Part shown: one piece after another, positions 1 to 34,582 of the stretch
Layout of the letters: every line of letters begins with the position of its first letter
Numbering within the stretch: position 1 is the first letter of the stretch
DNA from: a virus
Taxonomy: Duplodnaviria; Caudoviricetes
Length of the DNA: 34,582 bases
Direction: 5' to 3' (one strand)
IMG/VR virus record: IMGVR_UViG_3300037044_000209
Span: 1-34,582 of that record
Notes under the pieces: model-generated
Database searches by the model: none
What the model was told of the DNA's origin: nothing
The model's input: only the letters and a program-made list of their open reading frames with translations
Position numbers and translations under genes: made by a program

Positions 1-174
1 CTATCCAATGCTAGGCTCGTTTTTCATTTTCTCAATTTCCATTTTTAAATACAACGCTTTGCTCTTATCGACTCTAAACTCCGGCCATCTCTTATCATGG
101 ATACTTTTTGGGTAGTCTTTCCACTTAAGTCTTAATTTTTCCAAACTATTTTCTAAATCTTGAATTGTTACCAT
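1..174 (-). CDS. Hypothetical 57-aa protein (not in ORF track)
   Basis: Manual translation MVTIQDLENSLEKLRLKW...NEPSIG*; start overlaps the end of 168..542; TAG at 1-3. Confidence 0.7.
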   Translation of the reverse strand: MVTIQDLENSLEKLRLKWKDYPKSIHDKRWPEFRVDKSKALYLKMEIEKMKNEPSIG

Positions 175-1173: not shown

Positions 1174-1368
1174 TTAAAAACCTTTGTCAAATAGTTTATT
1201 GACAGTTTGCTTTTCCAGCCATTTTAGAAGGTCGCTTTCCCTGATACGAACATTCCTATCCAATCGGATATAAGGAATTTGGTTTCGGGAAATGAGAAGA
1301 TACAATTTTGCCTTTGATACCTTTAGGTATGAAGCTACTTCGGGTACGGTCATAATCCTGTCGTCCAT
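1174..1368 (-). CDS. Excisionase-family (HTH_17-like) DNA-binding protein
   Basis: MTVPEVASYLKVSKAKLYLLI...IPYIRL..NVRIRESDLLKW; SD AGGAGG. Confidence 0.85.
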   Translation of the reverse strand: MDDRIMTVPEVASYLKVSKAKLYLLISRNQIPYIRLDRNVRIRESDLLKWLEKQTVNKLFDKGF

Positions 1369-1613
1369 CTTCCCTCCTGTAATCTCTCCACAATCTTTTC
1401 CACATAAGCACCGACAATTGCCTGTCTCATTTTTACCGGCATACCGTTATTGAACTCAACACTCGGAAACGGTGGTAAATCATCAATAGATAAATCCTGT
1501 CTAATTTCAAATTTAGTTGTGTTACTTTCTGTCAGACAAGGAACGCATTGGTCTGATAAATAATTACTGCATATTTTGCAGGTTGTGTATTTTGATAAAA
1601 TAATTTCTTTCAT
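1350..1613 (-). CDS. Hypothetical Cys-motif protein
   Basis: CxxC...CxxC; start moved to ATG 1613, which follows a GGAG SD. Confidence 0.6.
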   Translation of the reverse strand: MKEIILSKYTTCKICSNYLSDQCVPCLTESNTTKFEIRQDLSIDDLPPFPSVEFNNGMPVKMRQAIVGAYVEKIVERLQEGRWTTGL

Positions 1614-1659
1614 AATTTTTTCTCCACGGCAGAGGAAGGTAGTCTGCCGTGATTGAAGC

Positions 1660-1917
1660 CTATTCAGTCCGGTGATACCTGTCGCATATTTGGCAATAGT
1701 GCATTCCCAGGTACTCATTTGGCTTATCACCATTTTCCGGTTTTTGGTTCGCTACGTTCAAACCATTTCCAGCTACATGGTACCTTTGACACTTTTTGCA
1801 GTAATGCAAGACCAAGTATTCACTCGGCTCGTTCACCTTTTTGGCGGGGATGACGATTGATAACAATCCCTTCCCTACATTCCGCAAGATGATTCCGGCT
1901 TCGTTTACGGCGGTCAT
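1660..1917 (-). CDS. Small protein with duplicated HYCxxCxRYH motif
   Basis: EYLVLHYCKKCQRYH and EYLGMHYCQICDRYH; SD GAGGAGGT. Confidence 0.65.
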   Translation of the reverse strand: MTAVNEAGIILRNVGKGLLSIVIPAKKVNEPSEYLVLHYCKKCQRYHVAGNGLNVANQKPENGDKPNEYLGMHYCQICDRYHRTE

Positions 1918-1973
1918 GACTACCTCCTCTGCTGCCTTAACGGGACTAACGTTGCCCGTTTTAGCCCAAGTTG

Positions 1974-3491
1974 TTAATGATCAATAGTTGGTCTTGTTTC
2001 TGCTTTTACCTCCTGTGTATGCCGTCTATTGATAACCTCCAAAGCATCTCGAACTCTTACCCCTTTATCTTTCAAAAGGTCTAGTTTGACTTCCTCTAAT
2101 AAGGCTTTGCTATCAGAATCTATAATGGGGCTGGTCTTTGTTTCTAATATGTGCCGAATATAATGATCCATCCTTTGTTCACTAACATGCCGGCGGATAA
2201 TACATTCTCTTCGTTTCATTCGCTGAATCCAGTTGCCAATTTCCAAATATTGGCCTCGATCATTTTCGATTACTGGCTGGCGACTCGAATCAGTTGCCGG
2301 TAATTTCTCCATCTTTGGATCATATTTGAATAATTGTTGAGCTATCTCAAATGCTTCATTGAAATTTGATACCGCAAAAGATACGACATTCCCCAAAGAC
2401 CAAATATGAGGGCGGAGTTCCTCACTCATCTGGGCTAATTCCTGTAAAACAATGTAAAGCTGTAATTTTCGACTTCGGTATTGTGGTGAAAGTTGAGAGA
2501 GTTCCGGTGCCATTCCAGGAATTGAGAGAAGGGAGTAAACCTCATCAAGTACCAAAGAAACGGGTTTCTCATTTGGATCAGCCGGCCTTCTCCTTTTTAT
2601 TTCAGCCAAAATTAGGGAAAAGGCTTGGGTAAATAGGTAATGTTGAGCTTGTTCTTGACCAATCATTTTTGCACCGTCAATTATGACCATCTTTCCACCC
2701 TCAATGGCTTCTTTAGGAGTCCAGCCTGGGTGGTAATAACCTAATCTTGCCTTAACCTCCCGGATATCGGTAAGATTAAGTAATGACCGGAGAGCATAAG
2801 TCCTCATTTCTCTTTCTCCAGATTTGATGTCTTGACTCAGATATTCGCAATTTAAAAACCAAGCGGTTTCAGGTATTTTTGATCCATATTTTTTCAACGC
2901 ATTTCGTAAAAAACCTTTATCCACCATCAAACGTTTCGTTTCCGTAATCTGCCATGTTTCCTGTGAATCGATTTCGTCATTTGATATCGCTGTAAGCATA
3001 CGGAAGAAATGAGGGGCGATTTCATTGACTGCTAAACCTCCCAAAATTGGGGCATTTTTTATCAGGTGAGGGGATAGCTTTGATAAATTACTGACAACTC
3101 TTTGGATCTGTTCTTCGTAATTACCACCATAAGCAAGTGAAAACTCCGGCATGGGAATTACCCAATCAGGGTTTCCCAACTGGTCATAAACAACTCTTCT
3201 AAGATAACCATTTCTCTTGGTTGGCTCTTCATTGAGAAGCATCGTTAGAATGCTGTCAGTGATCGATCCGCTCCAATCTAGGACAAAGACCGCCCTGTCG
3301 GGATATCGTTTGAAATAATCGACCAGGTGACGTGCTAGACTGGTGGTTTTACCTGTTCCCTGTTTTCCAATATAAAGAGTTCCCATGGTCAATCCTTCGT
3401 CAAACAACTCGTCTTCTTTTCCAATCGCCAAAGAAGAAGAAATTGGATGGTACCCAAAAAGCAATCTATTTATAGTTCTAAGATTGAGCAT
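1974..3491 (-). CDS. VirD4/TraD/HerA-superfamily P-loop ATPase (coupling-protein-like)
   Basis: Walker A GKQGTGKT, VFVLD, Walker B LVLDEV, RSRKLQLYIVLQELAQ, GNVVSF; no obvious TM segment. Confidence 0.75.
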   Translation of the reverse strand: MLNLRTINRLLFGYHPISSSLAIGKEDELFDEGLTMGTLYIGKQGTGKTTSLARHLVDYFKRYPDRAVFVLDWSGSITDSILTMLLNEEPTKRNGYLRRVVYDQLGNPDWVIPMPEFSLAYGGNYEEQIQRVVSNLSKLSPHLIKNAPILGGLAVNEIAPHFFRMLTAISNDEIDSQETWQITETKRLMVDKGFLRNALKKYGSKIPETAWFLNCEYLSQDIKSGEREMRTYALRSLLNLTDIREVKARLGYYHPGWTPKEAIEGGKMVIIDGAKMIGQEQAQHYLFTQAFSLILAEIKRRRPADPNEKPVSLVLDEVYSLLSIPGMAPELSQLSPQYRSRKLQLYIVLQELAQMSEELRPHIWSLGNVVSFAVSNFNEAFEIAQQLFKYDPKMEKLPATDSSRQPVIENDRGQYLEIGNWIQRMKRRECIIRRHVSEQRMDHYIRHILETKTSPIIDSDSKALLEEVKLDLLKDKGVRVRDALEVINRRHTQEVKAETRPTIDH

Positions 3492-4194
3492 TTTGTGTCA
3501 ACGGGTAAGTTTTCCCGTCCTCCCCCCAGATGTAAATTGGGGCTGATAACTGTTCACCAATAGGAACAGATTTGAAAGTTTCAAAGTCGGTAAAAAATAC
3601 CGGCAATCCAATAGGTATAATCTCCCAAACAAACTTCTGAACTTTTTCTCTTGGCACGTCGATAACAAATATGATGATACTTTCGGTACTAAATCGGCTG
3701 TTTATTATTGAGAGGTTATTTTTATAAGAAGTCAACTTGTTTTTTATGTTGTTGTATTTCTGGAAATTGTCCTTGGTGCTATATTCCACCAATATCATCT
3801 TTCCATTGGGGAATTTGATACCTACATCTGGGATACTTCGACATCCAAAAAACTTTCTTTCTGGGATTACAAGGGACTCCATATTTGACCTCCAAAATCT
3901 GACCATACATTCGGTACAACCTAAACCATGAGCAATCAAGTAAATAATGTCTGGGTTTCTAACTCGGCGGGGGCAAGCATAGACCAGTCGTTTCCCAAAG
4001 TTTGTTGAAAATAATGACCTGGCTCTAGTCTTCGGGTTGTCGTAGTTTTTTACTAGTCTTGGCAAAATTACCTCAGTCCTTCGATGTCGTTTCGTCGTGC
4101 CGGTAAACCAGATGATGTAGTGCTCTTTGGCGGCCCAGTGAAATAATTGGGAGACCTCTAAATACTTTAGTTGAGATAAGGTGGCCTTCTTCAT
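3478..4194 (-). CDS. Replication-relaxation (Replic_Relax)-like nuclease/relaxase
   Basis: N-terminal wHTH-like region, HxL motif, PD...ExS..K...Y catalytic-like pattern; coupled to the ATPase. Confidence 0.6.
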   Translation of the reverse strand: MKKATLSQLKYLEVSQLFHWAAKEHYIIWFTGTTKRHRRTEVILPRLVKNYDNPKTRARSLFSTNFGKRLVYACPRRVRNPDIIYLIAHGLGCTECMVRFWRSNMESLVIPERKFFGCRSIPDVGIKFPNGKMILVEYSTKDNFQKYNNIKNKLTSYKNNLSIINSRFSTESIIIFVIDVPREKVQKFVWEIIPIGLPVFFTDFETFKSVPIGEQLSAPIYIWGEDGKTYPLTQNAQS

Positions 4195-4276
4195 ATTTCT
4201 TCCCTTATGGGGTGGAGAAAAAAGGCACTAAAAATTTTCCTCCACATAATAAACTTAACATTTCCATTGATGTTTA

Positions 4277-4588
4277 TCAATTAAAGAAAAACAATCGGAT
4301 GATAAAAATTGTCAAACTGGCTAGTACCAACCATCCCAAAATTAGAGTAATGCTGGCGACTATTTTTGCTCCTGTTCGTAAGGCTGGATGATAGCCTAAA
4401 GGTAATCCTGCTTCTGTTGCTTCCTCTATCCAATTATCAGCAATCCTATCAATAGACTTTGGAATTCCTACATAAATACTGGTGATTGAAGTAATGGTCA
4501 AAAAAAACATCATCCTAAAAAACCTGAGTATCCAGGGGAATAAACCCCTCAAAATAGAAAAAACTAATCGAACCAAGTTCCTAAACAT
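4277..4588 (-). CDS. Membrane protein
   Basis: Two hydrophobic helices; SD GGAGGT. Confidence 0.7.
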   Translation of the reverse strand: MFRNLVRLVFSILRGLFPWILRFFRMMFFLTITSITSIYVGIPKSIDRIADNWIEEATEAGLPLGYHPALRTGAKIVASITLILGWLVLASLTIFIIRLFFFN

Positions 4589-4995
4589 ACATACCTCCCA
4601 TCTTTTAAAACTGCGATAAGCATTGGGTCATAAGCACATAAAGCTGAAAGGAAATATAATAATCCGATTCCAATCACCGAAAATACTGTAACCAATGCTC
4701 CTAGACTGTTTTCTACTGCTTTTTGATTAGCTTCTTTTCTCTTTTCTTCCTGTTCTCTTTTGGCTTCAATTACCTGAATATCTTCGGCAATTAGAAACCC
4801 CTGAACTTCAATTCCCTGGGAAAGAAATTCAAAAAGTCTTTTCTGGATATCCGGGGGAACTTTCCCTAGATAATCTTGAGCCGGCATAATCCACCAGTTG
4901 CCGATCTGACAAGGGGATTTAACTAACTCCCCATATCCGATGACCTCGAAATCATTTTGGATTTTAAAATCTAATTGGCTTGTTTTGGTTTCCAT
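4564..4995 (-). CDS. Membrane-anchored hypothetical protein
   Basis: Coiled coil followed by one TM helix; SD AAGGAG. Confidence 0.7.
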   Translation of the reverse strand: METKTSQLDFKIQNDFEVIGYGELVKSPCQIGNWWIMPAQDYLGKVPPDIQKRLFEFLSQGIEVQGFLIAEDIQVIEAKREQEEKRKEANQKAVENSLGALVTVFSVIGIGLLYFLSALCAYDPMLIAVLKDGRYVCLGTWFD

Positions 4996-5019
4996 TTTTT
5001 ACTCCTTGCGTATAATTTA

Positions 5020-5047
5020 AGATATTCCCAACCAACCGACAATATCT
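5020..5047. promoter_or_regulatory. Inverted repeat in divergent promoter region
   Basis: AGATATT-N14-AATATCT between 4995(-) and 5062(+). Confidence 0.35.
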
Positions 5048-5061
5048 GAGGGGAAATCAAG

Positions 5062-6087
5062 ATGTCTGAATTTTTTAGAGAGAAAATCGTTAAATTAGAG
5101 AGCCTTGATGAGAGGGAAAAGGTAATCCTCGACTTTATCATGGCGGATGTAAATGTCAAAATTGTTGACATTGCCAACCAAATTCACCTTGGAGAGAGTA
5201 CAACTCGTAATACTTTGTCGGGTATATTCACTAAACTGGGTGTACCGGCTGATGAGCGAGACAAGCGTGGTTTTGTTGTCAGAGAGTATTCAGAGGCCTA
5301 CAGAGAGAGGTATCTGAAGGTTGGAGAGATACCCTCTCAACCCCAAAATAGCCCCGTTAGCGAGCCCAGGATTGACGTTTCCCCTCCGAGCCGAAGGGTA
5401 AGTCAACGAGTTGTCATAATTGGAATAATTGGCGGTTTTGCCCTAATATCTATTTGCTCAATTATATTCCTTTTGGTTTTTTTGAGAGTTTTAAATCGAC
5501 CTATGCCGGTAGTGATGGCCAGTGCAATGCCACAAACTGTAGTTGAACAAAATACCCCAGAGCCTGTATATGTCTATGAAACTGCCACCCCAGAAACTGT
5601 AGTGATAATTCCTTCGACTGCCACAAATGTTCCAACTTACACCTCAGTTCCTCCAACCCCAACGTATCTTCCGACACCAACACGAAAAGACCTTTATGCT
5701 CAAGGCGAATGGACATATTTAAGAGAGAATGTTTTTATTTCTCTTGACCAAGATTTTTGGACTGCTTGGTGGGCTAGTTGTATTAATGACCCAGGTTTTG
5801 TTGTAAATTTTGAAGTTAGAAATGAAGGAACGAGTGATTTTTTAATGCGTTTTGACAAAATGTCTTTTTCGGCAGTCGACAATACAGGAAAGTCATATCA
5901 GTTAACCGGTTCTGGTTCAGGACAATGTGAAGACTTTGGTATCTACAGTGAAACGGTGCGAGATGGAGGAAGTAGGTTTTTTGTTATAGCCTTTGCTGGA
6001 CAGATACTTGTTGACGCTAGATATATAGATATAACAATCAATGATATTTCAGGTAGTGGAAAAATTGTATTTAGAAAGAATCTGTAA
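5062..6087 (+). CDS. LuxR-type HTH, TM helix, Pro/Thr linker, extracellular beta-sandwich (DUF4352-like)
   Basis: LDEREKVIL...IANQIHLGESTTRNTLSGIFTKLGV; long hydrophobic helix; PTPT linker; FSAVDNTGKSY. Confidence 0.7.
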   Translation: MSEFFREKIVKLESLDEREKVILDFIMADVNVKIVDIANQIHLGESTTRNTLSGIFTKLGVPADERDKRGFVVREYSEAYRERYLKVGEIPSQPQNSPVSEPRIDVSPPSRRVSQRVVIIGIIGGFALISICSIIFLLVFLRVLNRPMPVVMASAMPQTVVEQNTPEPVYVYETATPETVVIIPSTATNVPTYTSVPPTPTYLPTPTRKDLYAQGEWTYLRENVFISLDQDFWTAWWASCINDPGFVVNFEVRNEGTSDFLMRFDKMSFSAVDNTGKSYQLTGSGSGQCEDFGIYSETVRDGGSRFFVIAFAGQILVDARYIDITINDISGSGKIVFRKNL

Positions 6088-6127
6088 ATTATTCAGTGAA
6101 TAAAATTTTTAATCTAAGGAGATAAAG

Positions 6128-6730
6128 ATGAAACCATTAGATGGTGCTTGGGAACACCTATCAAAAATTGAGGAATATTCATATACGTGTGGTTATTGTG
6201 GTACGAAAACCGGGGTTAATGTTGGCTATCAGGTAGGCTTACCAACGCACAAAATCTATATATGTGGTGGTTGCAAGAGACCTTCTTTCTTTGAAGTAGA
6301 TAGAGATTATAACGAGATTTATCAAACTCCGGCACCAGCTTATGGTGATGACTTACAGAATCTTACTAAGGAAATCGAACAGCTTTATAAACAAGCAAGA
6401 AGATGTATTCAAGCAGGGGCATATACAGGCTGTATTCTAATTTGCCGAAAAATCTTAATGCACGTCGCCGTAGAAGAAGGGGCTAAACCAGGAGAATCTT
6501 TTCTGTCTTATGTTACATACCTTCAAACAAACAACTACATTCCGCCGAAAGGTAAAGGTTGGGTAGACTACATTAGAGAAAGAGGAAATGAAGAAAATCA
6601 TGAAGTGGTGTTGTCAAATTTGGGGGACGCAACTTTGTTGATCGATTTTACCTCTATGTTGTTAAGAAATGTTTACGACTTTCCTGCCAGAGTTCCAAAA
6701 CCTCCAACTACTACACCAACTGTTTCATAA
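6128..6730 (+). CDS. Zn-ribbon plus DUF4145 (HEPN-like) protein
   Basis: CGYCG...CGGC; LYKQARRC..GAYTG..LICRKIL; IRERGNEENH (RxxxNxxxH); SD AAGGAG. Confidence 0.8.
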   Translation: MKPLDGAWEHLSKIEEYSYTCGYCGTKTGVNVGYQVGLPTHKIYICGGCKRPSFFEVDRDYNEIYQTPAPAYGDDLQNLTKEIEQLYKQARRCIQAGAYTGCILICRKILMHVAVEEGAKPGESFLSYVTYLQTNNYIPPKGKGWVDYIRERGNEENHEVVLSNLGDATLLIDFTSMLLRNVYDFPARVPKPPTTTPTVS

Positions 6731-8736: not shown

Positions 8737-9501
8737 TTAGAAGAAATTAAAGAAGCCACTACCAGCTGGAATGAAAAATGTTCCAGAAGAAGTAAACTTA
8801 TGGATAGTGTCTGCACCTGATGTAGTAATTGTTCCACCAGTACAAACAGGTAAGTCTGCTGTTGTATATCTAATTATTACTATACCTGAGCCACCAGCTC
8901 CTCCTGGACGTGAACCTCCACCTCCACCTCCACCTCCACCAGTATTAGCTGTGCCAGCAAATCCGTCTTGAGCACCATACCCTCCATTTCCACCACCACC
9001 TGCTCCACCAACACCAGCACTTACATTCTGTCCACCTGCTCCACCTCCACCGGCATATGTTACGGCTGATCCAGATATTGAATTTGAAGTGCCAGCACCA
9101 CCCTTTCCCTCGTTTCCTGAAGCATTTGCGGCATAACCTGCTTGACTAGAGCCACCACCTCCACCTCCACGATAGGACACGGCTGTGCCAGCTCCACCAT
9201 CATATCCTTGACCTGCTGTACCAGAACCCCCTGCACCATTAGTATAAGAGTGTCCACCACCAGAACCTCCATTACCCGGAGTAGACCATCCCCTTCCTCC
9301 TCCGATTGCAGTCAATGTACTAAAAACGGAATTGTTGCCATTATTCCCAGAAGACCCTCCTGAACCAACTGTTACAGCATAAGAACCTGGATTTACTCCA
9401 AATGTTGCATTATATATATACCCACCAGCCCCACCACCACCGTTGGCATCGGTACCACCTCCACCTCCACCAGCAACAACTAATACTTTAACTGTAGCCA
9501 T
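8737..9501 (-). CDS. Glycine-rich virion/tail fibre protein
   Basis: VLVVAGGGGGG...GGSGIVIIRY...IHKFTSSGTF phage glycine-rich domain. Confidence 0.8.
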   Translation of the reverse strand: MATVKVLVVAGGGGGGTDANGGGGAGGYIYNATFGVNPGSYAVTVGSGGSSGNNGNNSVFSTLTAIGGGRGWSTPGNGGSGGGHSYTNGAGGSGTAGQGYDGGAGTAVSYRGGGGGGSSQAGYAANASGNEGKGGAGTSNSISGSAVTYAGGGGAGGQNVSAGVGGAGGGGNGGYGAQDGFAGTANTGGGGGGGGGSRPGGAGGSGIVIIRYTTADLPVCTGGTITTSGADTIHKFTSSGTFFIPAGSGFFNFF

Positions 9502-9502
9502 T

Positions 9503-10723
9503 TTAGAAATTATTCAAAACTGCTAACAAATCCCATTTAGTGTCAATAGTATTGAAAATAAATCCCATATATAGGGTTTTATTGACTACTGTAGTCGTGG
9601 GTAAGGCTAAATCAGTTGATGCTCGGAATTGAGTATCATAAGTCAAAGCTCTGGCTGTACCATTATCTTTGACTCTAATGATTAGTTTTTGTCCGGCAAC
9701 AGGAGTACCACCTGGATTGTTAAATTTCAAAGCACCAGCTTGAGCGGTTACTTGGAAGACATCACAATCAGCAACACTTAAAGAAGTTCCCGTATCAGTT
9801 GTATAAGAAGCGGCAGTAACGATACGAGGTTCAATTCTTTTATTTGTAAATGTAGTAGTAAGAGAATCAAAATAAGTTTTCAAAATTGACTTTACATAAG
9901 CCCATGACAAAGTTTTGAGCACATTTGAAGCCTCGGTGTCAATAATAGCCACTTTGTCGGCATCAGCCATTGTAGTTTTTGCGTCAGCTCCTTGTATTGA
10001 AGATCCAACATTACCAGCGTCAGTGACATCAGCGGCAGTTTCAATTCCAGATAACTTTGTCTGTTCGGTAGCTGAATATTGCTTGTAATTAGTACCATCA
10101 GGTACACCGTCTTGGGTTGTACTAGCCGGAAGCGAAGCTGCCTCAATTTCGGAAATGGTTTTTCCACCATCTTTTAAAAGTTTTCCTGTTATTCCATCAA
10201 ATGTTGCAACTCTATCAGTAGTAGAAGAAGCTGGGCCAACAACGTCACCAGCTCCTTCACCATCAATACCTTTTTGAGCCACAAGTTCCCAATAGGTAGC
10301 ATTAGGAGGCTCTTGATTGGTATTTGTCAAAATACAAATATAAGAACTTCCTAACCTATAAACCACATCCCTTGCTACATATTCGGTAGCTGAACTCCAT
10401 TCTCCTTGCCATTCAACTCCTGGTATACCCTGAACTCCTTGTTCACCTTGTGTTCCCTGTTCCCCTTGTATACCTTGAATACCCTGTATTCCTTGCTCTC
10501 CTTGTGGGCCGGTTGCACCAGTAGCTCCTGTTTCACCTTGGATACCCTGGTCTCCTTTAGAAGCTAACAAAGCCCAATAAGTAGCATTTGGTGGTTCGTT
10601 ATTCGTGCTATTAGCTATACAAGTGTAGGAGCTTCCCCCGTGTGAAACAAAATCACCAACAGTATAGGCAGTGGCACTTATCCATGCTCCTTTATTTAGA
10701 TCTGAATATAGTTTGTCAGCCAT
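9503..10723 (-). CDS. Tail fibre with collagen repeats and two CBM5/12-like modules
   Basis: W...TAY.VGD.V...GSSY.CI......PPNATYW twice, flanking Gly-X-Y repeats. Confidence 0.8.
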
Positions 10724-10763
10724 AAGCGTTTAAAAAAACACAACGCCTTTAATAATAATAGCA
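10724..10763 (-). promoter_or_regulatory. Late-module leader motif, copy 4
   Basis: TGCTATTAT-7-GGCGTTGTG-TTTTTTTA-AACGCTT-ATG. Confidence 0.75.
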
Positions 10764-11247: not shown

Positions 11248-11270
11248 AATTATTTATTTTAAAATTTAAT

Positions 11271-11292
11271 CCCTCCCCCTTTCGAGGGAGGG
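11271..11292. terminator. GC-rich intergenic hairpin
   Basis: CCCTCCC...GGGAGGG; weak U tract. Confidence 0.45.
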
Positions 11293-11772: not shown

Positions 11773-11864
11773 AAAAAAACCTCTAAATAATAATTAGAGG
11801 TAAGTTTTTCTTGTGTCCCCCTCAGCGTTAGCCAAGGGGGAGGAACTTAAAGTTCACTTACCTC
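11773..11864 (-). terminator. Terminator with competing multibranch structure after the coat gene
   Basis: ACCTCTAA-7-TTAGAGGT plus T-run; its 5' arm can instead pair in GAGGTAAGT/ACTTACCTC, enclosing two hairpins. Confidence 0.6.
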
Positions 11865-11873
11865 AAAGGACAA

Positions 11874-13031
11874 TTAGAAATTGCTTGCATCAAGAACCAT
11901 CTTGACTGAGGCAATTTGACCATCGGAGAACATTTCAGTTCCCATGCCAATGATTCCTTTCGGAAGTTTGGCAAATCCAGCTTCTTTGCTTTCTACTTCA
12001 AGGTCAACGAATTGCATAACTGCATCAATAGCACCTCGAATCATGAAGATTGAGGATTGCTGTTGAGCTGACCAAACATTGGTAGCAGCAGTGAAAGTCT
12101 CACTAACGGAGATATCACCATTACCAGTGAAAGCCATAGCTTCAGCAGTCGTACATTTTACGTTTCTCTTTCTGCGGAGAATGAAAGCGTTCATGGGACT
12201 GATATCAACATAAGTTGTACCAGCACCACTATTACCTTCAACAGCAGCTTTCAGGTTAGCCCTGGAAGTCGCCACATCAGAACCAATGTCGACATCGCCG
12301 GCATCAGTTGGAGAAGCAACGAATTTAAAAGTAACACCCGCAATGGTAACCGTATCATTAGCGGTTGGGTTGGTATCCATGGTCAAAGTAGCAGACCAAG
12401 GAAGGTTGTTGTTTTCAACAACTGTCCACCCATGCCAAGGGCCAATAACACCATTGGCTAAAACACTATCACCAAGTCCAGATTCTCTTTCAGATTTTGC
12501 TCTTCGGAGAATTTCTACAGCATGAGGGCCTAAGACTACCGCTCTCATCGAAGAATCACGAGGAACATCGAAAGAACCGAGTTTTGAACCAGCTTCTTGA
12601 AAGATATCGAGAATATTAGTGGTTGCAAGCTCGAATGCAGTTCCACTATTGATTGAGTGGAAAGCATTGGGAATCTCACTAAGATACTTTTGCTCGAACG
12701 CATTCATCAAACCACGACGAATCGAGGTAAGAGAGTGTTGCAAAAGGTCATAGGGAGACTGATTGCTCTCAGTAATATCGATATCCTCAGCCGCATATTG
12801 GAAGGTATCAACTTCTAACGTACCTTTACTTGCTGATTTGGCGGTGAAACTAATATCAGTGTGGGGAGTATAAGTCCCGATTTGAGCATGAGATAGAATT
12901 GGCTTGTGAGCCTTTCTACCATCAGTGCTGATTAAATTTTCTAGAGATTGATTTGCTAAGTAAACAGCTGAATTGGCTGTATATAGATCTACTTGCAAAT
13001 CACCCCAGAATTCTGCTTTTACATCAGTCAT
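11874..13031 (-). CDS. Major capsid protein (P22 coat-like, with insertion domain)
   Basis: 385 aa after scaffold; HK97-fold-like pattern (NGVIG.WHGW.V.ENNNLP) and a beta insertion. Confidence 0.8.
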   Translation of the reverse strand: MTDVKAEFWGDLQVDLYTANSAVYLANQSLENLISTDGRKAHKPILSHAQIGTYTPHTDISFTAKSASKGTLEVDTFQYAAEDIDITESNQSPYDLLQHSLTSIRRGLMNAFEQKYLSEIPNAFHSINSGTAFELATTNILDIFQEAGSKLGSFDVPRDSSMRAVVLGPHAVEILRRAKSERESGLGDSVLANGVIGPWHGWTVVENNNLPWSATLTMDTNPTANDTVTIAGVTFKFVASPTDAGDVDIGSDVATSRANLKAAVEGNSGAGTTYVDISPMNAFILRRKRNVKCTTAEAMAFTGNGDISVSETFTAATNVWSAQQQSSIFMIRGAIDAVMQFVDLEVESKEAGFAKLPKGIIGMGTEMFSDGQIASVKMVLDASNF

Positions 13032-13085
13032 AATTTTAGGTTGAAAATAAATAAAATAGAACGATGGGAGAAATCAACCTGAAAG

Positions 13086-13733
13086 TTATTGTGTTTGCCT
13101 ATATTTTTCCCTCGCCGCCCTTGCTTCATTCCAGGCTTTTCTGCCTTCTTCAGTATCAAGTGCAAAATCTGCTGGATTCAATGGTTTAGAAGGATCGATA
13201 TTGGAAACATACCCTGCTTTGCCTGAGCGTTTTGGAGTGGCATTTTTTATCCTCTCCTCACGTTCAGCTTCCTCTTTCCTTGATTGGATATAAGGAAGAT
13301 TGGCTGCTTCTCTCACGGAAATCCCTTTTAATTTGGCTAAGTCTTTAATTTCGGCTTTCAGTTCATCTGATAGTCCAAGACTTTCAAGGTCTCTTTCTTC
13401 CAGAATCTCATTAAGCGTACTTTTTACTAAATCGCCAACATCAGGCGTTTCCTTGTTGGATTTATTATCCTCTCCGTTGTCGGAGTTTTTTGAAGTCACT
13501 TTGGCTTTCTCCCTCCAGTTAATCTTTTGCTTTATTGCTCCAGTTAACTTTTCATGGTGGGATTTTTCCCGGCTAACTAACTTTTCGAGTAGATCAACAT
13601 CATCATCTGGGTTTAAACCAAATTCTTCTGCTAATTTATCTCTAAGTTCGTCTTCCTTGACTTCCTTAGTTGCCTCTTCATCAGCCTTAAGCTCATCGGG
13701 AGAGACCACGATGTTGTTTTTATCTTCGTCCAT
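13086..13733 (-). CDS. Capsid scaffolding protein
   Basis: Acidic coiled-coil protein directly upstream of coat. Confidence 0.75.
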   Translation of the reverse strand: MDEDKNNIVVSPDELKADEEATKEVKEDELRDKLAEEFGLNPDDDVDLLEKLVSREKSHHEKLTGAIKQKINWREKAKVTSKNSDNGEDNKSNKETPDVGDLVKSTLNEILEERDLESLGLSDELKAEIKDLAKLKGISVREAANLPYIQSRKEEAEREERIKNATPKRSGKAGYVSNIDPSKPLNPADFALDTEEGRKAWNEARAAREKYRQTQ

Positions 13734-13752
13734 AGGACTATATATTTATAAA

Positions 13753-13844
13753 TAACCGCCATTTGGCAGTTAAGATGGGGGGCCGGTAAGCGTTGTGGAA
13801 AACCAACCCCTCAACTAAAATGTCAAAGGACGCAACGCTTGCCG
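13753..13844 (-). ncRNA. Putative structured RNA with CACAACGCTT loop
   Basis: Stem GGGGTTGGT/ACCGGCCCC (two U.G pairs, favouring the minus strand), loop TTTCCACAACGCTT; upstream complement AAGCGTTGCG; 3' hairpin TAACTGCC-AAAT-GGCGGTTA. Confidence 0.55.
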
Positions 13845-13848
13845 ATTT

Positions 13849-14124
13849 TTAAAGTGTATTTTGTTCAATTATATGTCCACATGAAGGACATTTGATACCG
13901 TGTTTGATTTTTTCAAAATTTACGACAAATTTTCTTTTAGCTGCAAACTCTTTGGCGAGGTCTACAAATTTCTCTCCATGGGTTTCTAAACTATATTTTC
14001 TAACCACATAGCTTCCGTTATAGACCACAGCCTCAATTTCTGGGGACACTTCATTGCCTTGTTTTGGGGCATCTGGAATAATCGATGATTTTACTTCTTT
14101 TTTTACTGCTTTTAATTTATTCAT
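13849..14124 (-). CDS. Hypothetical basic protein with CPSCG knuckle
   Basis: Start moved to ATG 14124, 5 nt after a -10 box. Confidence 0.65.
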   Translation of the reverse strand: MNKLKAVKKEVKSSIIPDAPKQGNEVSPEIEAVVYNGSYVVRKYSLETHGEKFVDLAKEFAAKRKFVVNFEKIKHGIKCPSCGHIIEQNTL

Positions 14125-14129
14125 AATTG

Positions 14130-14159
14130 ATACTAACAATTAATAATAATGTTTGTCAA
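14130..14159 (-). promoter_or_regulatory. Sigma70 promoter, near-leaderless transcript
   Basis: TTGACA-18-TAGTAT with TGn extension. Confidence 0.65.
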
Positions 14160-16219: not shown

Positions 16220-16628
16220 ATTTATTGGTTACTTCACCACTAATCTCGGTACTAATTTCTTCTTTCATTCCATGATTAGCAGAAAGTATTAATTTTGTAA
16301 TTGTAGGGTTATAGTATCCTCCCAACCCTTCATCTATTAGACGTTGTAGCTGTTCTTGTTTAATTCGCTCCAAAGCTTCGTCAACTTCTGAATGGATAGC
16401 TCTCCAATCATAAATAGTCCTCTTGGCATGACCCAAGTAAGCTATAAAGCCCTCAATAGTGGGCAATCTTACCTGATAAATTCTAGAAACTCCGCCCCTT
16501 TTATTGGTTACAACTTCAACATGATCCTGACGTTTTTGGAGATATTCCTCTAGCTTCTTCTTAAACTTTTCCCGATTATAAGATGTCGGTCTGCCTGTTT
16601 TCTTGGTGTAGTGATATTTTTTTGGCAT
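16128..16628 (-). CDS. terS: Terminase small subunit (gp3-like)
   Basis: GRPTSY, PTIEGF..YLG....IYDW, YNPTITKLILSANHG; upstream of terL. Confidence 0.85.
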   Translation of the reverse strand: MPKKYHYTKKTGRPTSYNREKFKKKLEEYLQKRQDHVEVVTNKRGGVSRIYQVRLPTIEGFIAYLGHAKRTIYDWRAIHSEVDEALERIKQEQLQRLIDEGLGGYYNPTITKLILSANHGMKEEISTEISGEVTNKFDDRQIDRIAERIAARGRSNGDSSSEEKSN

Positions 16629-16681
16629 AGCATTATGCTAGTATAATAACATTTCACAACGCTTACTAAATAATGATAGCA
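16629..16681 (-). promoter_or_regulatory. Late-module leader motif, copy 3
   Basis: TGCTATCAT-9-AGCGTTGTG-N17-CATAATGCT-ATG; 9-bp stem with two G.U pairs. Confidence 0.75.
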
Positions 16682-20164: not shown

Positions 20165-21543
20165 GCTATTTTTTTCCATCCTGAACTAGTATATTGCCAG
20201 ATTTCACCTGTAGATGGATCAACATAAACAGTCCCAACTCCTCCAGATGGACTGAATTGAGGTGATTGACCTGTTGTTTGAGTTGAATCTTGAGTGTTAT
20301 TCACTGATTGATAACTCATAGTGGATGTATCACCAGCCAATATCTTTTTTAAATAATCATCAGCTGTACTGGTAGTCGATCCACTTCCTGTTGCAGGCAT
20401 TTTATAGTAATAAGTTTTACCCTTGCTATCGGTGAAAGATTTTAATTGTGCTGCGGGGATACCTGATGGATTTGTGACTAATACCCCTCCGGCGGATGTA
20501 AATTGGTTGGCGGTATCTCGAACTTCTTTAGAATATTGATAATTAGCTAGTTTTTGATTGATTCCCTCTACTGTGTCATTCAAACTAACTCCAGATTGAG
20601 CCATAGCCATGGCAGTATCAGGATTAATCATCAATTCTTTGATGTAATCGGATGTTGCCTGTGCTCGGCCAAGGTCATTTTTCAAAAGGTCTGTTTGCTC
20701 TTGGGCAAGTTTACGATCTTCAGCGGTAAGGGTGATAATGTCTCTATTGGCAAGATTTAAAACCGTTTCGTAATATCCCAACCGATCCATTCTATCTTGA
20801 GTAATTGCTCCGATACTTCGGTCAATTGAATAATAGGCGTTAGCCAGGTAGGTGTTTTGTAGACTGACAACGGCAGAAATGACTCCAGCTCTAGCTGATA
20901 CATCATCCATGGTTTTCTGTACCCTTGGATTTCTAATCGCTGCTAATCCGGTAGTTTCCTGTTGTTGTTTAATAAGGTTGTTACCTTCGGTTAAAAGTTG
21001 GTCTAATTCATTCAACAATTCTCTCTGTTGGAAAATAACCTCATCAGTTCCATACCTTTCCCTCTCTGACTTTTCTAGTTCCTCCCTAAAAGGCGTAGTA
21101 AGCTTGTCAACTTCTCCTAAAGCTGCGGTCTCTTTTGCCTTGGCTGCATCGAGTTCACCTTGGGTTTTAGCTCTTTGTTCGTTTAAATTTACCTCAAGTG
21201 CGTTTCGAGCTTTTTGAACTTCCTCATTTAAACCGAATACATAATTCTGATTAGCTCCTGTCGTATAAGCTGGAGTTACTCCTGGGGTGATACTTTGAGC
21301 AGATACATTGGCAAGATATTGGTCAAATTGTTGGAGAGAAACACCTTGGGCGGCAGCTGAGGCGGATCTGACTTCCTGATTTACTGCTGAACCAGCTCCT
21401 TGTTGATTAGATTCAGGGTGAATTACATTAGGATCTGATAAGGTCCCATTCCAATATTGTCTGCCTTGATACCATCCACCAGTTTGAAATCCCCCTGATG
21501 GTGCTGTAATTCCTAGTTGAGTTGGATTATAAGTATTTGCCAT
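20161..21543 (-). CDS. Putative DNA ejection protein
   Basis: Gln/Ala-rich coiled coil; start moved to ATG 21543 after the leader hairpin. Confidence 0.6.
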   Translation of the reverse strand: MANTYNPTQLGITAPSGGFQTGGWYQGRQYWNGTLSDPNVIHPESNQQGAGSAVNQEVRSASAAAQGVSLQQFDQYLANVSAQSITPGVTPAYTTGANQNYVFGLNEEVQKARNALEVNLNEQRAKTQGELDAAKAKETAALGEVDKLTTPFREELEKSERERYGTDEVIFQQRELLNELDQLLTEGNNLIKQQQETTGLAAIRNPRVQKTMDDVSARAGVISAVVSLQNTYLANAYYSIDRSIGAITQDRMDRLGYYETVLNLANRDIITLTAEDRKLAQEQTDLLKNDLGRAQATSDYIKELMINPDTAMAMAQSGVSLNDTVEGINQKLANYQYSKEVRDTANQFTSAGGVLVTNPSGIPAAQLKSFTDSKGKTYYYKMPATGSGSTTSTADDYLKKILAGDTSTMSYQSVNNTQDSTQTTGQSPQFSPSGGVGTVYVDPSTGEIWQYTSSGWKKIA

Positions 21544-21584
21544 GCGTTGTTTAAAACACAACGCTTTATTAAAAAATTATAACA
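21544..21584 (-). promoter_or_regulatory. Late-module leader motif, copy 2
   Basis: TGTTATAAT-10-AGCGTTGTG-TTTTAA-ACAACGC-ATG. Confidence 0.8.
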
Positions 21585-26764: not shown

Positions 26765-27469
26765 TTAAAGTCCATAAGCATTTACGGATTGTTTTTTTAA
26801 CCTAAATCTGGTTCTATCATCAGGACTTCTTCTGGCGTAATGCTCCTGAATTGTCGCCCTGATTCTTTCTTTTTCAGACATTAAAAAAGAAGCTTTTTCT
26901 TTCATCCCATTTGCCAGAGCATAACGGAGGGAAGCACCGATAGATAAGTATTGATGGAATTGTGGATTAAATCCAGGCTTTTCGTCTGTATCAGCAGTCG
27001 AGAAATGATTAGCTCCTCTTTGGAACTCTAATTCATATTCTATTGCTGACGATGGCACTGGTATTGGAAAGATAGCATTATCGATTTTGTAGTACTTATA
27101 AGGTGTCCCGGTGGAGTTTAAATCACTATCAGATAATTCTCGCCTAGTTACCGAAGTTAGAGTTTTATATACCCCACTAGTATCTTTAATTCTTACCCGA
27201 TGAATCACCATACTTCCATCAGGTATGGTTACATGGTCTTCACTTGTAGTAATGGTAGCAATTGGAAAGTCTGTATTAGTAATATCGTCCCACATGAAAT
27301 TGGGATCGGCTTTAAAAAGTTCGGAGACTACCTCATCCAGAGAGATGTTGACATTTCGTGTTCTATCGGCCAAGGCGTAATCACTGTTGAATGTTGAGCC
27401 GTCAGCAAATAACAAAAAATCGATGTCTGCGACAATCGAATTACTTTTATCTGTAGGATTAAATTGCAT
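26765..27469 (-). CDS. Head-tail adaptor/connector protein
   Basis: GTPYKYY...IFPIPVP, FHQYL..GA..RY pattern; start moved to ATG 27469; ends YGL. Confidence 0.7.
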   Translation of the reverse strand: MQFNPTDKSNSIVADIDFLLFADGSTFNSDYALADRTRNVNISLDEVVSELFKADPNFMWDDITNTDFPIATITTSEDHVTIPDGSMVIHRVRIKDTSGVYKTLTSVTRRELSDSDLNSTGTPYKYYKIDNAIFPIPVPSSAIEYELEFQRGANHFSTADTDEKPGFNPQFHQYLSIGASLRYALANGMKEKASFLMSEKERIRATIQEHYARRSPDDRTRFRLKKQSVNAYGL

Positions 27470-27535
27470 AGCCGTTGAGATACTAATCACAACGCTTTAA
27501 AAATTATAGCATTTCTAATCTTGGTGTGTAAATTA
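27470..27535 (-). promoter_or_regulatory. Late promoter and leader motif, copy 1
   Basis: TTTACA-18-TATAAT (TGn), 6 nt, then AGCGTTGTGA-TTAGTA-TCTCAACGGCT-ATG. Confidence 0.8.
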
Positions 27536-33502: not shown

Positions 33503-34582
33503 TTGAAAAGAAGAAGTCGAGGGGAAGGTTCAATTTACCGGCGTGAAGATGGTTTGTGGGTTGGTCAAATATATGTTGCCGGAAAGAAAAAAGTAAAATA
33601 TTCAAAGATTCAAAAAGAAGTTCGGGAATGGCTTCATCAACAAAAAGACTCTGTGAATAAAGGGATATTTATTGATAAAAAGGACATCACCTTAACAGAT
33701 TTTCTAACTCGCTTCATAGAATCCCAAGAGTCAACACTACGCCCTAAAACAATAGAAAGCTACAACTACCTTATCAGAGTTCATATAGTGCCGGAACTGG
33801 GGAATTGTAAACTTTCACAACTTAGGCCGGATATTATCCAAGCCTTTTACACTTTAAAAGTAAATTCTAATCTATCAAAAAGAACCGTCCAGTATATGCA
33901 CGCTGTACTCCACAAGGCATTAGACCAGGCTATGAAATGGGGTTTGGTAGCAAGGAACGTAGCCGATTTAGTGGACCCTCCAAGACCGACAAAAAATATT
34001 CCTAAAACATGGACAGTCGAACAATCAAAAAGATTTTTAGAACAGGTAAAAGACTCTCGTTTTTTTCCTATGTACTGTTTAGCTTATATCGGCCTTCGAG
34101 AAGGGGAGATCCTTGGCCTTGCTGTCAAGGACTTTGATAGAGAAAACCATACCATTACCATCCGTCAGGCTCTCCAATATATTACCGGTAGGGGATTGAT
34201 TATTGCCGAACCTAAAACAGAATCATCAAAAAGGACAATCAAGTTGCCTGATTTTGTTTATGAGGCTTTGGTAAATCATCCAGTAAACAAGGATCAGGAG
34301 TTATTATTTGTCACCTCAAATAACACCCCCTTCAATCCTCGAAATTTCGTCAGAGATTTTAAATCACAGACGAAAGAAGCCGGATTGCCAGAGATTAGAT
34401 TCCATGATTTACGTCATTTCGCTGTATCTTTTCTTATCAATGAGTTAAAAATCCCACCTAAAGTTGTGCAGGACATTATCGGACACGCTACTATCAATCT
34501 CACCATGACCGTTTATTCCCATTCAAATACGGATCAGCAAAGTGAGGCCATGGAGAAAATGGGGAATGCTTTTGCAATTTAA
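33503..34582 (+). CDS. int: Tyrosine recombinase/integrase
   Basis: GEGSIY arm-binding N-terminus; GLREGE, PKT, FHDLRH, IGH, VYSH catalytic residues; TTG start with SD-like AAGGA. Confidence 0.95.
   Translation: MKRRSRGEGSIYRREDGLWVGQIYVAGKKKVKYSKIQKEVREWLHQQKDSVNKGIFIDKKDITLTDFLTRFIESQESTLRPKTIESYNYLIRVHIVPELGNCKLSQLRPDIIQAFYTLKVNSNLSKRTVQYMHAVLHKALDQAMKWGLVARNVADLVDPPRPTKNIPKTWTVEQSKRFLEQVKDSRFFPMYCLAYIGLREGEILGLAVKDFDRENHTITIRQALQYITGRGLIIAEPKTESSKRTIKLPDFVYEALVNHPVNKDQELLFVTSNNTPFNPRNFVRDFKSQTKEAGLPEIRFHDLRHFAVSFLINELKIPPKVVQDIIGHATINLTMTVYSHSNTDQQSEAMEKMGNAFAI

Follow-up and report, generated by a model that had tools for sequence, protein, structure and literature searches.

A conserved, apparently undescribed RNA element with two predicted states, and matching, putatively locked late leaders, in a large family of uncultured phages

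Described systems and comparison with the present locus

In temperate phages, the timing of late genes is the work of proteins, namely antiterminators, late sigma factors, and activators. Antisense RNAs of the C4/CI type are matured by RNase P. Among the described systems, IsrK of Gifsy-1 is a prophage RNA that has a leader part and a short trans form, two folds, and a leaky terminator, and activates by competing with its own cis pairing (PMC4825925). It has a single target, its own read-through mRNA, and works via orf45/anrP on protein regulators (PMC4825925). The C4 RNA of P1/P7 and CI of P4 are reported to display the complement of the target in a loop, with a target copy upstream in the same transcript and with RNA and target changing together; they repress an antirepressor or replication operon via blocked translation or termination and confer immunity (PMC12197685, PMC4825925).

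Designed STARs and toehold switches turn a gene on through a trans RNA that pairs with the 5' side of a hairpin, either a terminator or one that conceals the start, and one RNA can drive several targets as a single-input module; they are engineered and use long linear toeholds (PMC5648800, PMC4737173). In the IS10 RNA-OUT/RNA-IN pair, the first contact is made between the loop of a long hairpin and the unpaired 5' end of its target mRNA; the RNA is a cis-encoded antisense that forms a long duplex with a single target and represses it (PMC4737173). Another account names phage sRNAs in general terms only (PMC13501541).

The window analyzed here, i.e., the whole stretch of DNA, is a whole virus record of 34.6 kb, in which an element of ~105 nt (13740-13844, minus strand), called the key element, lies ahead of the capsid genes. 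One of its loops, the key, is complementary to a short motif, the box, in the leaders of late genes. The key element is a real, conserved, and apparently undescribed phage RNA element with two predicted states and with matching, putatively locked late leaders. By analogy, it appears to work most like IsrK and designed STARs, with the loop-to-5'-end geometry of IS10 RNA-OUT. Like IsrK (PMC4825925), it is a predicted leader RNA with two folds and a terminator; unlike IsrK, one key loop matches three to eight unlinked late leaders directly, and neither sequence nor structure homology to IsrK was detected in Rfam and phage BLAST searches. As with STAR and toehold targets, the box makes up the 5' side of a hairpin predicted to terminate transcription or to conceal the start, but the key system has a toehold of 1-4 nt or the nascent state only, a loop as trigger, and its own cis mask.

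A loose analogy to C4 had been drawn in the initial annotation, and it holds for the layout: the complement lies in a loop (predicted, covarying), and a target copy, the cis box at 13831-40, lies upstream. It fails for the model match and the type of target, since a scaffold candidate and the major head protein follow the key and the targets include terS, adaptor, and fibre genes. Unlike in C4/CI, the targets are virion-gene leaders with a single short box and a layout suggesting activation. The key element is not a member of the C4/CI type; it would be a form of activating antisense control. The covariance-model search of Rfam proposed in that annotation gave no match to the key element at E<=5 in the window, where two sub-threshold matches lie elsewhere, and no element match at gathering score in six related loci, which returned tRNAs only. 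Similarly, no DNA match was found in GenBank phages, and no published account in a search that covered main texts and few subscription papers; motif lists in the supplements of large ncRNA surveys may bear on the novelty.

The phage record, its relatives, and hosts

Proteins of the window match an integrase, terminase subunits, a major head protein, a tail fibre, and an endolysin. For its coat protein, 578 relatives were found, 121 of which were aligned, and 50 viral, 74 metagenome, and 8 genome loci were collected; a usable scaffold leader was present in 106 loci, which collapsed to 68 distinct leaders. Related loci are labeled L### and relatives among genome records G###, with G006 being the source of L132. 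GenBank phages contain one coat relative at 56% identity, whose proteins are all hypothetical.

Two relatives are integrated prophages with host genes at their flanks. The named relatives of the G006 flank protein are mostly Patescibacteria (Levybacteria, Roizmanbacteria, Harrisonbacteria, and others), and the title of the G006 record reads Gammaproteobacteria; three further loci sit in Patescibacteria MAGs. At the family level, the window's own host aside, this prophage and MAG evidence points to Patescibacteria as hosts of these uncultured phages.

The window has some further features. Regions 1174-6730 and 33503-34582 carry an excisionase-like gene, the gene of a 505-aa ATPase, cargo genes on the plus strand, and the integrase; the related phages compared have no counterparts of these genes, which may belong to a second mobile element or stem from a chimeric join. 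Four 21-nt direct repeats, iteron-like, lie at 621-687 and 888-908 within an O-like replication gene. Terminator-like hairpins follow the coat gene (11773-11904) and a 154-aa gene (11270-11292); an Rfam match to manA-II in this region was weak (30 bits vs. a gathering score of 100) and was judged to be chance.

Table 1. Features of the window connected with the key element and its boxes (positions on the window; ATG, start codon).
Feature	Position	Strand	Elements	Gene or remark
Target leader 1	27469..27511	-	TG-extended -10, 27511-27503; box, 27498-27488; anti-box arm, 27479-27470; ATG, 27469	SU10-type adaptor, first gene of a portal-like operon
Target leader 2	21541..21584	-	-10, 21584-21576; box, 21567-21557; anti-box arm, 21550-21544; ATG, 21543	460 aa, without family match; 'ejection' is the label of the initial annotation
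Target leader 3	16626..16681	-	-10-like TGCTATCAT, 16681-16673; box, 16665-16655; anti-box arm, 16638-16629 (two G.U); ATG, 16628	Terminase small subunit (terS)
Target leader 4	10721..10763	-	-10-like TGCTATTAT, 10763-10755; variant box, 10749-10739; anti-box arm, 10731-10724; ATG, 10723	Tail fibre
One-mismatch box copy	50..59	-		Inside early-region ORF, without hairpin, chance level; doubtful member of the box set
Promoter-like site	14122..14159	-	TTGACA-18-TAGTAT, TG-extended	Ends 5 nt before zinc-ribbon ATG
Zinc-ribbon ORF (CPxCG)	13849..14124	-	91 aa	Stop ~8 nt before cis box
Cis box 'a'	13831..13844	-	AAGCGUUGCG core, 13840-13831	Masks key in closed fold
Inner hairpin, closed fold	13806..13831	-		Same bases as 5' arm of long stem
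5' arm of long stem, open fold	13802..13827	-		Predicted fold and covariation
Key loop a'	13788..13801	-	UUUCCACAACGCUU	Exact complement of late-leader box
3' arm of long stem	13762..13787	-		Last 11 nt double as 5' arm of terminator-like hairpin
Terminator-like hairpin and A/U tail	13740..13772	-	Hairpin, 13772-13753	U-run weak in window
Head operon downstream of key	11874..13733	-	215-aa scaffold candidate, 13086-13733; major head protein, 11874-13031	Scaffold candidate without family match, named from position

Two predicted folds of the key element

In the closed fold of the key element, the 5' box pairs with its complement and the terminator-like hairpin comes next; in the open fold, the complement of the box is displayed in the loop of the long stem (Table 1). 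The closed form is the minimum-energy fold of 13753-13844 on the minus strand (-34.3 kcal/mol, z -3.13), and the loop-displaying form lies ~5 kcal/mol above it as a single structure, the ensemble populating both. The initial annotation had described the 14-nt loop (13801-13788), its 9-bp closing stem, the hairpin at 13753-72, and a cis helix with two C.A mismatches on the minus strand that pairs more cleanly on the plus strand, all of which were reproduced; its loop-displaying fold exists as a populated alternative, the minimum-energy fold being the closed form. Assembled contigs from two other runs (X8, X10) span the key element with zero differing letters, so it is not an assembly artefact.

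The key element was found in 36 of the 68 distinct scaffold leaders (the window and some near-identical pairs counted), at coat identities of 41-86%, and its presence is scattered across the coat tree, with 14 changes on 65 rows. Across 29 aligned copies, 81% of 749 cells are paired in the closed fold, with double-sided changes in 20 of 26 pairs (10/11 in box:key, 4/7 in the inner hairpin, and 6/8 in the terminator), and 78% of 518 cells are paired in the open long stem, with double-sided changes in 16 of 18 pairs; slid registers drop to 26-49% paired. The covariation scores of both folds were reached by 0 of 500 shuffles, a control that is inflated by relatedness. Judged from this alignment, both mutually exclusive folds show compensatory changes. 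When the cis box is blocked in the folding model, the loop is exposed in 28 of the 29 copies (mean ensemble gap, ~4 kcal/mol); with the cis box unblocked, the closed form is dominant in 13.

In stepwise folding of the window copy, the closed form comes up first. If the box is blocked, the terminator's 5' arm is held in the long stem at 86 nt, and the terminator is back by 92 nt. At equilibrium, the loss of pairs from the 3' hairpin on blocking the box exceeds 2 bp in just 5 of the 29 copies. Since the terminator re-forms by 92 nt and is clearly weakened in so few copies, antitermination by the key's own switch would be kinetic at best, and these models support antitermination within the key element itself weakly. 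The terminator-like hairpin is followed by 5-7 U in many relatives vs. the weak U-run of the window.

The cis box lies 1-48 nt past the upstream stop codon in 28 of 29 copies and has its own -10 in 10. In the window, the promoter-like site in front of the zinc-ribbon ORF is the likely source of the key-carrying transcript, as its sequence suggests. A second full key was found in G006 (L132:14948-15050; G006:C3:120410-120508) before holin-like and peptidase-like ORFs, with a partly shortened 3' arm, and a model search shows the key to be present in the 1.8-kb L087, which is outside the counts made on loci of at least 10 kb. The same model found no key elsewhere in key-less phages in the sequence stretches searched, and no host-encoded key outside prophages in three MAGs (150 candidates scored per MAG).

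Boxes in the late leaders

On the minus strand of the window, AAGCGTTGTG occurs exactly at 16655-64, 21557-66, and 27488-97, with a variant box (AGGCG...) at 10739-48 whose one change is a G.U against the key loop; its exact complement lies at 13788-97 and the cis copy at 13831-40. The motif search thereby confirmed all coordinates of the earlier claim that three leaders carry the motif exactly and a fourth pairs with one G.U. With up to one mismatch, the window has 7 matches vs. 1.13 expected, and 7 was reached in 0 of 100 shuffles. All four leader boxes lie downstream of a TG-extended -10-like element, and each opens a hairpin that closes, with its 3' arm, at the ATG. The -10 element just upstream of every box had been overlooked in the initial annotation, as had the terminator-type targets of relatives.

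The target leaders of relatives (terS, 21543-type, and fibre genes) were chosen by protein homology, and a box was found in 26 of 39 leaders of key-bearing phages vs. 0 of 33 of key-less phages. A -10 hexamer (at least 5/6) lies 4-11 nt upstream of 25 of these 26 boxes, compared with 7% among 851 background windows. In 19 of the 33 key-less leaders, the distance from the -10 to the ATG is just 3-13 nt, as in leaderless messages, so the box hairpin reads as an insert between promoter and start codon. The boxes would lie at the 5' ends of late transcripts, the starts of which are predicted. A DNA pattern for target leaders, used as a search query, retrieved only two contigs, both already known.

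By an ungapped pick that misses some arms, the anti-box arm ends 0-2 nt before the start codon for 28 of 47 boxes and at a U-run for 5 of them; four of these five belong to prophage G005 and the fifth, between scaffold and coat, to L067. Of the eight boxes in G005, one stands ahead of the zinc-ribbon gene upstream of the key and another ahead of a gene for a short membrane protein. The U-run terminators built on the box in relatives speak for activation by box capture. When the box is blocked, the predicted accessibility of the last 10 nt ahead of the start codon rises from 0.11 to 0.42 for terS and from 0.31 to 0.85 for the fibre.

The box could instead be a dsDNA site or promoter-proximal element for a late activator, or the opposite strand could be the functional one, with the hairpins secondary. 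Such a role is highly improbable. The constant distance of 4-11 nt between box and -10 element would suit it, the fold of the plus strand of 13753-13844 is nearly as good (z -2.88), and that strand gives better pairing in the outer long stem and in the cis helix of the window. However, G.U exceeds A.C on the late strand in the inner hairpin (54:13) and the inner long stem (32:10), G.U makes up 56 of the 423 cells of the anti-box arms, and U-runs follow the hairpins on the late strand. With a ratio of 13:13 for the terminator, 7:12 for box:key, and 8:35 for the outer stem, the late strand is favored overall and the outer long stem dissents; both bases of the conserved outer-stem mismatch have a partner in another helix. 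The caveat of the initial annotation, that an antisense transcript is possible, is weakened by the G.U bias of the two inner helices, the promoters, and the U-runs, and it remains in view of the outer long stem, whose pairing is better on the opposite strand.

Boxes without a hairpin were also observed at or over start codons (L146:15598(-), L113:1623(-), L148:2481(-), L151:6683(-), L144:13531(+), and L033:4432(+)), and an early 63-aa gene with such a box is conserved in two phages, the G003 copy being in a portal leader. They are possible triggers or repression targets. As triggers, they were rejected at control level in seven of eight genomes, with about one per genome vs. 0.3-1.9 with shuffled keys; the exception is G001, with 3 vs. 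0.28 in the shuffled-key control.

These copies bear on the possibility that the pairing is real with another direction or sign, i.e., that box transcripts hold the head leader open, which would then be a sensor, or that the key is a constitutive antisense repressor like C4/CI. At the hairpin-less start-codon boxes of G001, L113 (before the early operon's first gene, conserved), G002, G003, G004, and L033, binding could only repress or trigger; in L076, a promoter lies directly before the key without a cis box; and known phage loop-antisense RNAs mostly repress (PMC12197685, PMC4825925). On the other hand, capture of the 5' arm of a terminator cannot repress (five cases), blocking of the box in hairpin leaders increases the predicted pre-start unpairing of terS and fibre, and the unhairpinned copies are, except in G001, as frequent as with shuffled keys. 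Sensor and repressor together are held to be quite unlikely.

Proposed pairing between the key and the boxes in trans

Among loci of at least 10 kb, box hairpins occur in 18 of 26 key-bearing and 1 of 22 key-less ones (Fisher p 4e-6, kinship ignored). With correction for the tree, only four independent pairs are left, none of them opposite (median p 0.5), which is an underpowered comparison. The 8 key-bearing loci of this size without a box hairpin include all five of a deep branch (coat 41-43%), which has kept the switch with different box sequences and without hairpin targets. The complete genome G001 also has no box hairpin; it carries unhairpinned copies only, one of which lies just before the first gene of the early operon and is conserved in L113. 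The ancestral state may have been a cis attenuator or sensor, which one clade extended to a regulon.

Trans covariation was analyzed with 48 boxes from 17 phage records. Box position 2 is G in 3/3 boxes of the sole phage whose key calls for G vs. 0/45 elsewhere, position 4 is A in 3/3 boxes where the own key calls for the change vs. 0/45 elsewhere, and position 6 is A in 1/1 vs. 0/47. Matches to the own key amount to 458 vs. a permuted mean of 435, reached in 0 of 20000 permutations. Match counts are inflated by the selection of the 47-48 boxes, each of which had been scored against the key of its own phage, with a threshold that admits consensus boxes. These are three events in three lineages, in which unlinked boxes deviate exactly where their own key does. 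The covariation of loop and targets in relatives that the initial annotation had proposed as a check was therefore borne out.

Key and boxes pair better than the hairpins do themselves: against 47 boxes, the key gives 403 Watson-Crick pairs, 8 G.U, and 12 mismatches in 423 cells (95% Watson-Crick), and the boxes' own arms give 305, 56, and 62 (72% Watson-Crick, 13% G.U), which argues that the locks tolerate an RNA-only wobble and that the key is the stronger partner. The cis box:key pairing (197/207, 95%) is as good as that in trans (403/423). In L132, the terS box changed along with the key and its hairpin arm retains the old base. Deviations confined to the cis box outnumber those confined to the key by only 6 to 1.

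By hybrid energy, the four box leaders of the window rank 1-4 of 53 (-15.4 to -16.7, the next being -12.3). Net of opening, binding to the folded box leaders (-5.5 to -7.6) is not distinctive against two non-box leaders (-7.8 and -8.0); capture is thus most plausible on nascent RNA.

Hairpins can also be kept from forming by RNA-binding proteins, as is the case for BglG/LicT-type antiterminators. A host or phage protein of this kind might read the single-stranded box and prevent the hairpins, in which case the scaffold leader would be a cis attenuator, the 'key' its anti-box arm, and the long stem an antiterminator. Several results are compatible with such a reader: the closed fold, which has the lowest energy, is laid out like the hairpins of the four target leaders, the cis box:key pairing covaries, the deep-branch phages retain the switch without hairpin targets, and the sign of the terminator-type boxes is accounted for equally well. 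Trans covariation is also expected if the protein reads all boxes and the key just tracks the cis box. Nevertheless, the key arm rarely wobbles (3 of 207 cells in cis) vs. the other anti-box arms (56 of 423), and the cis box, which would be needed intact, deviates more often (window, L019, L025, L033, L037, and L132 vs. L075). It is not recognizable in L076, where key and targets are kept, and it differs in L129, which is near-identical to the window and has the same loop. The wide differences in box sequence between clades are incompatible with a fixed host protein, and no phage protein both common to and specific for key-bearing phages was found among the 9 contigs and 50 loci compared. A protein reader is considered unlikely.

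The individual candidates were discarded as follows. The zinc-ribbon ORF is present in 27/27 key-bearing and 21/23 key-less relatives, and it and the 86-aa and 46-aa proteins were rejected as box readers because they occur in key-less phages too; a 44-aa ORF is confined to key-bearing loci, yet to only 7 of 27. An Atlas search for box-reader candidates gave leads only, all below 0.9.

Proposed mode of action

The favored reading, put at a little better than even, is that the key is a trans-acting RNA that captures the boxes and unlocks late transcripts, like a natural STAR or toehold switch. The activating phage RNA proposed in the initial annotation gains from loop/target covariation, co-occurrence, hybrid ranks, and U-run terminators, and is graded overall as partly supported only.

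As seen in the sequence, a late module consists of a host-type -10, the box, and a complementary arm that reaches to the start codon or a U-run. The late promoters would need no phage factor, and the hairpin formed by the box would silence the message, either through concealment of the start region or through transcription termination. From the covariation, the head-operon leader appears to maintain a closed fold with the key masked and an open fold with the key in the loop. Once the cis box is occupied or removed, the loop would bind free 5' boxes so that the locks fail to form, probably on nascent RNA ahead of the synthesis of the anti-box arm. Loop binding to new nascent copies of its own leader would provide positive feedback, which may increase read-through into scaffold and coat. 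The first trigger might be a ribosome that halts 1-48 nt before it reaches the cis box, a processing step, or an unhairpinned box in an early transcript.

The wider proposal, that a widespread family of temperate Patescibacteria phages has an RNA-only late programme, in which 5' box hairpins lock all virion, packaging, and lysis messages and a self-masking leader unlocks these together with itself through positive feedback, is more tentative and falls somewhat short of even. If it is true, an unlocking leader would replace the Q protein or late sigma factor while host promoters stay on, and one RNA loop unlocking three to eight separate late transcripts via terminators and start-hiding hairpins would be the natural counterpart of designed STAR/toehold circuits. 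It would be a natural single-input module combining both devices, with a specificity code that varies among phages and natural key/box pairs that are likely orthogonal. A hairpin between the -10 and the start codon would convert an apparently leaderless message into a regulated one, and the system would offer a view of gene-expression control in phages of reduced, uncultured hosts.

Variant leaders

Several scaffold leaders deviate from the common layout. The keys of L084 (~9165-9260) and L113 (~9200-9265) have an additional hairpin within the loop or stem, so the key scaffold tolerates insertions. The leaders of L040 and L041 are identical except for the 5' arm of the long stem (~9170-9190), one being fully complementary to the 3' arm, either as an assembly artefact or through conversion in the inverted repeat. 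L129:9449-10168 is a fragment with the zinc-ribbon gene, key, and truncated scaffold within a non-phage 116-kb contig, which would be either a phage remnant or a misassembly.

In the scaffold leaders of L043-L046, L012, and L133-L135, long plain hairpins replace the key without a box or complement; they have 16-24 bp in L012 and L044-L046, with shorter helices in L043 and L133-L135. The key-less L136 has three direct CTCCGT repeats after the -10 in both the scaffold leader (~2780-2830) and the fibre leader (~5920-5965), probably a different late control that is read by a protein. In addition, many loci have a short GC hairpin immediately ahead of the scaffold ATG, together with a run of A and the conserved sequence GTCCT (window 13731-13740; L009, L014, L018, and L027 among others), in key-less phages too, and this arrangement reads as a second, separate translation signal.
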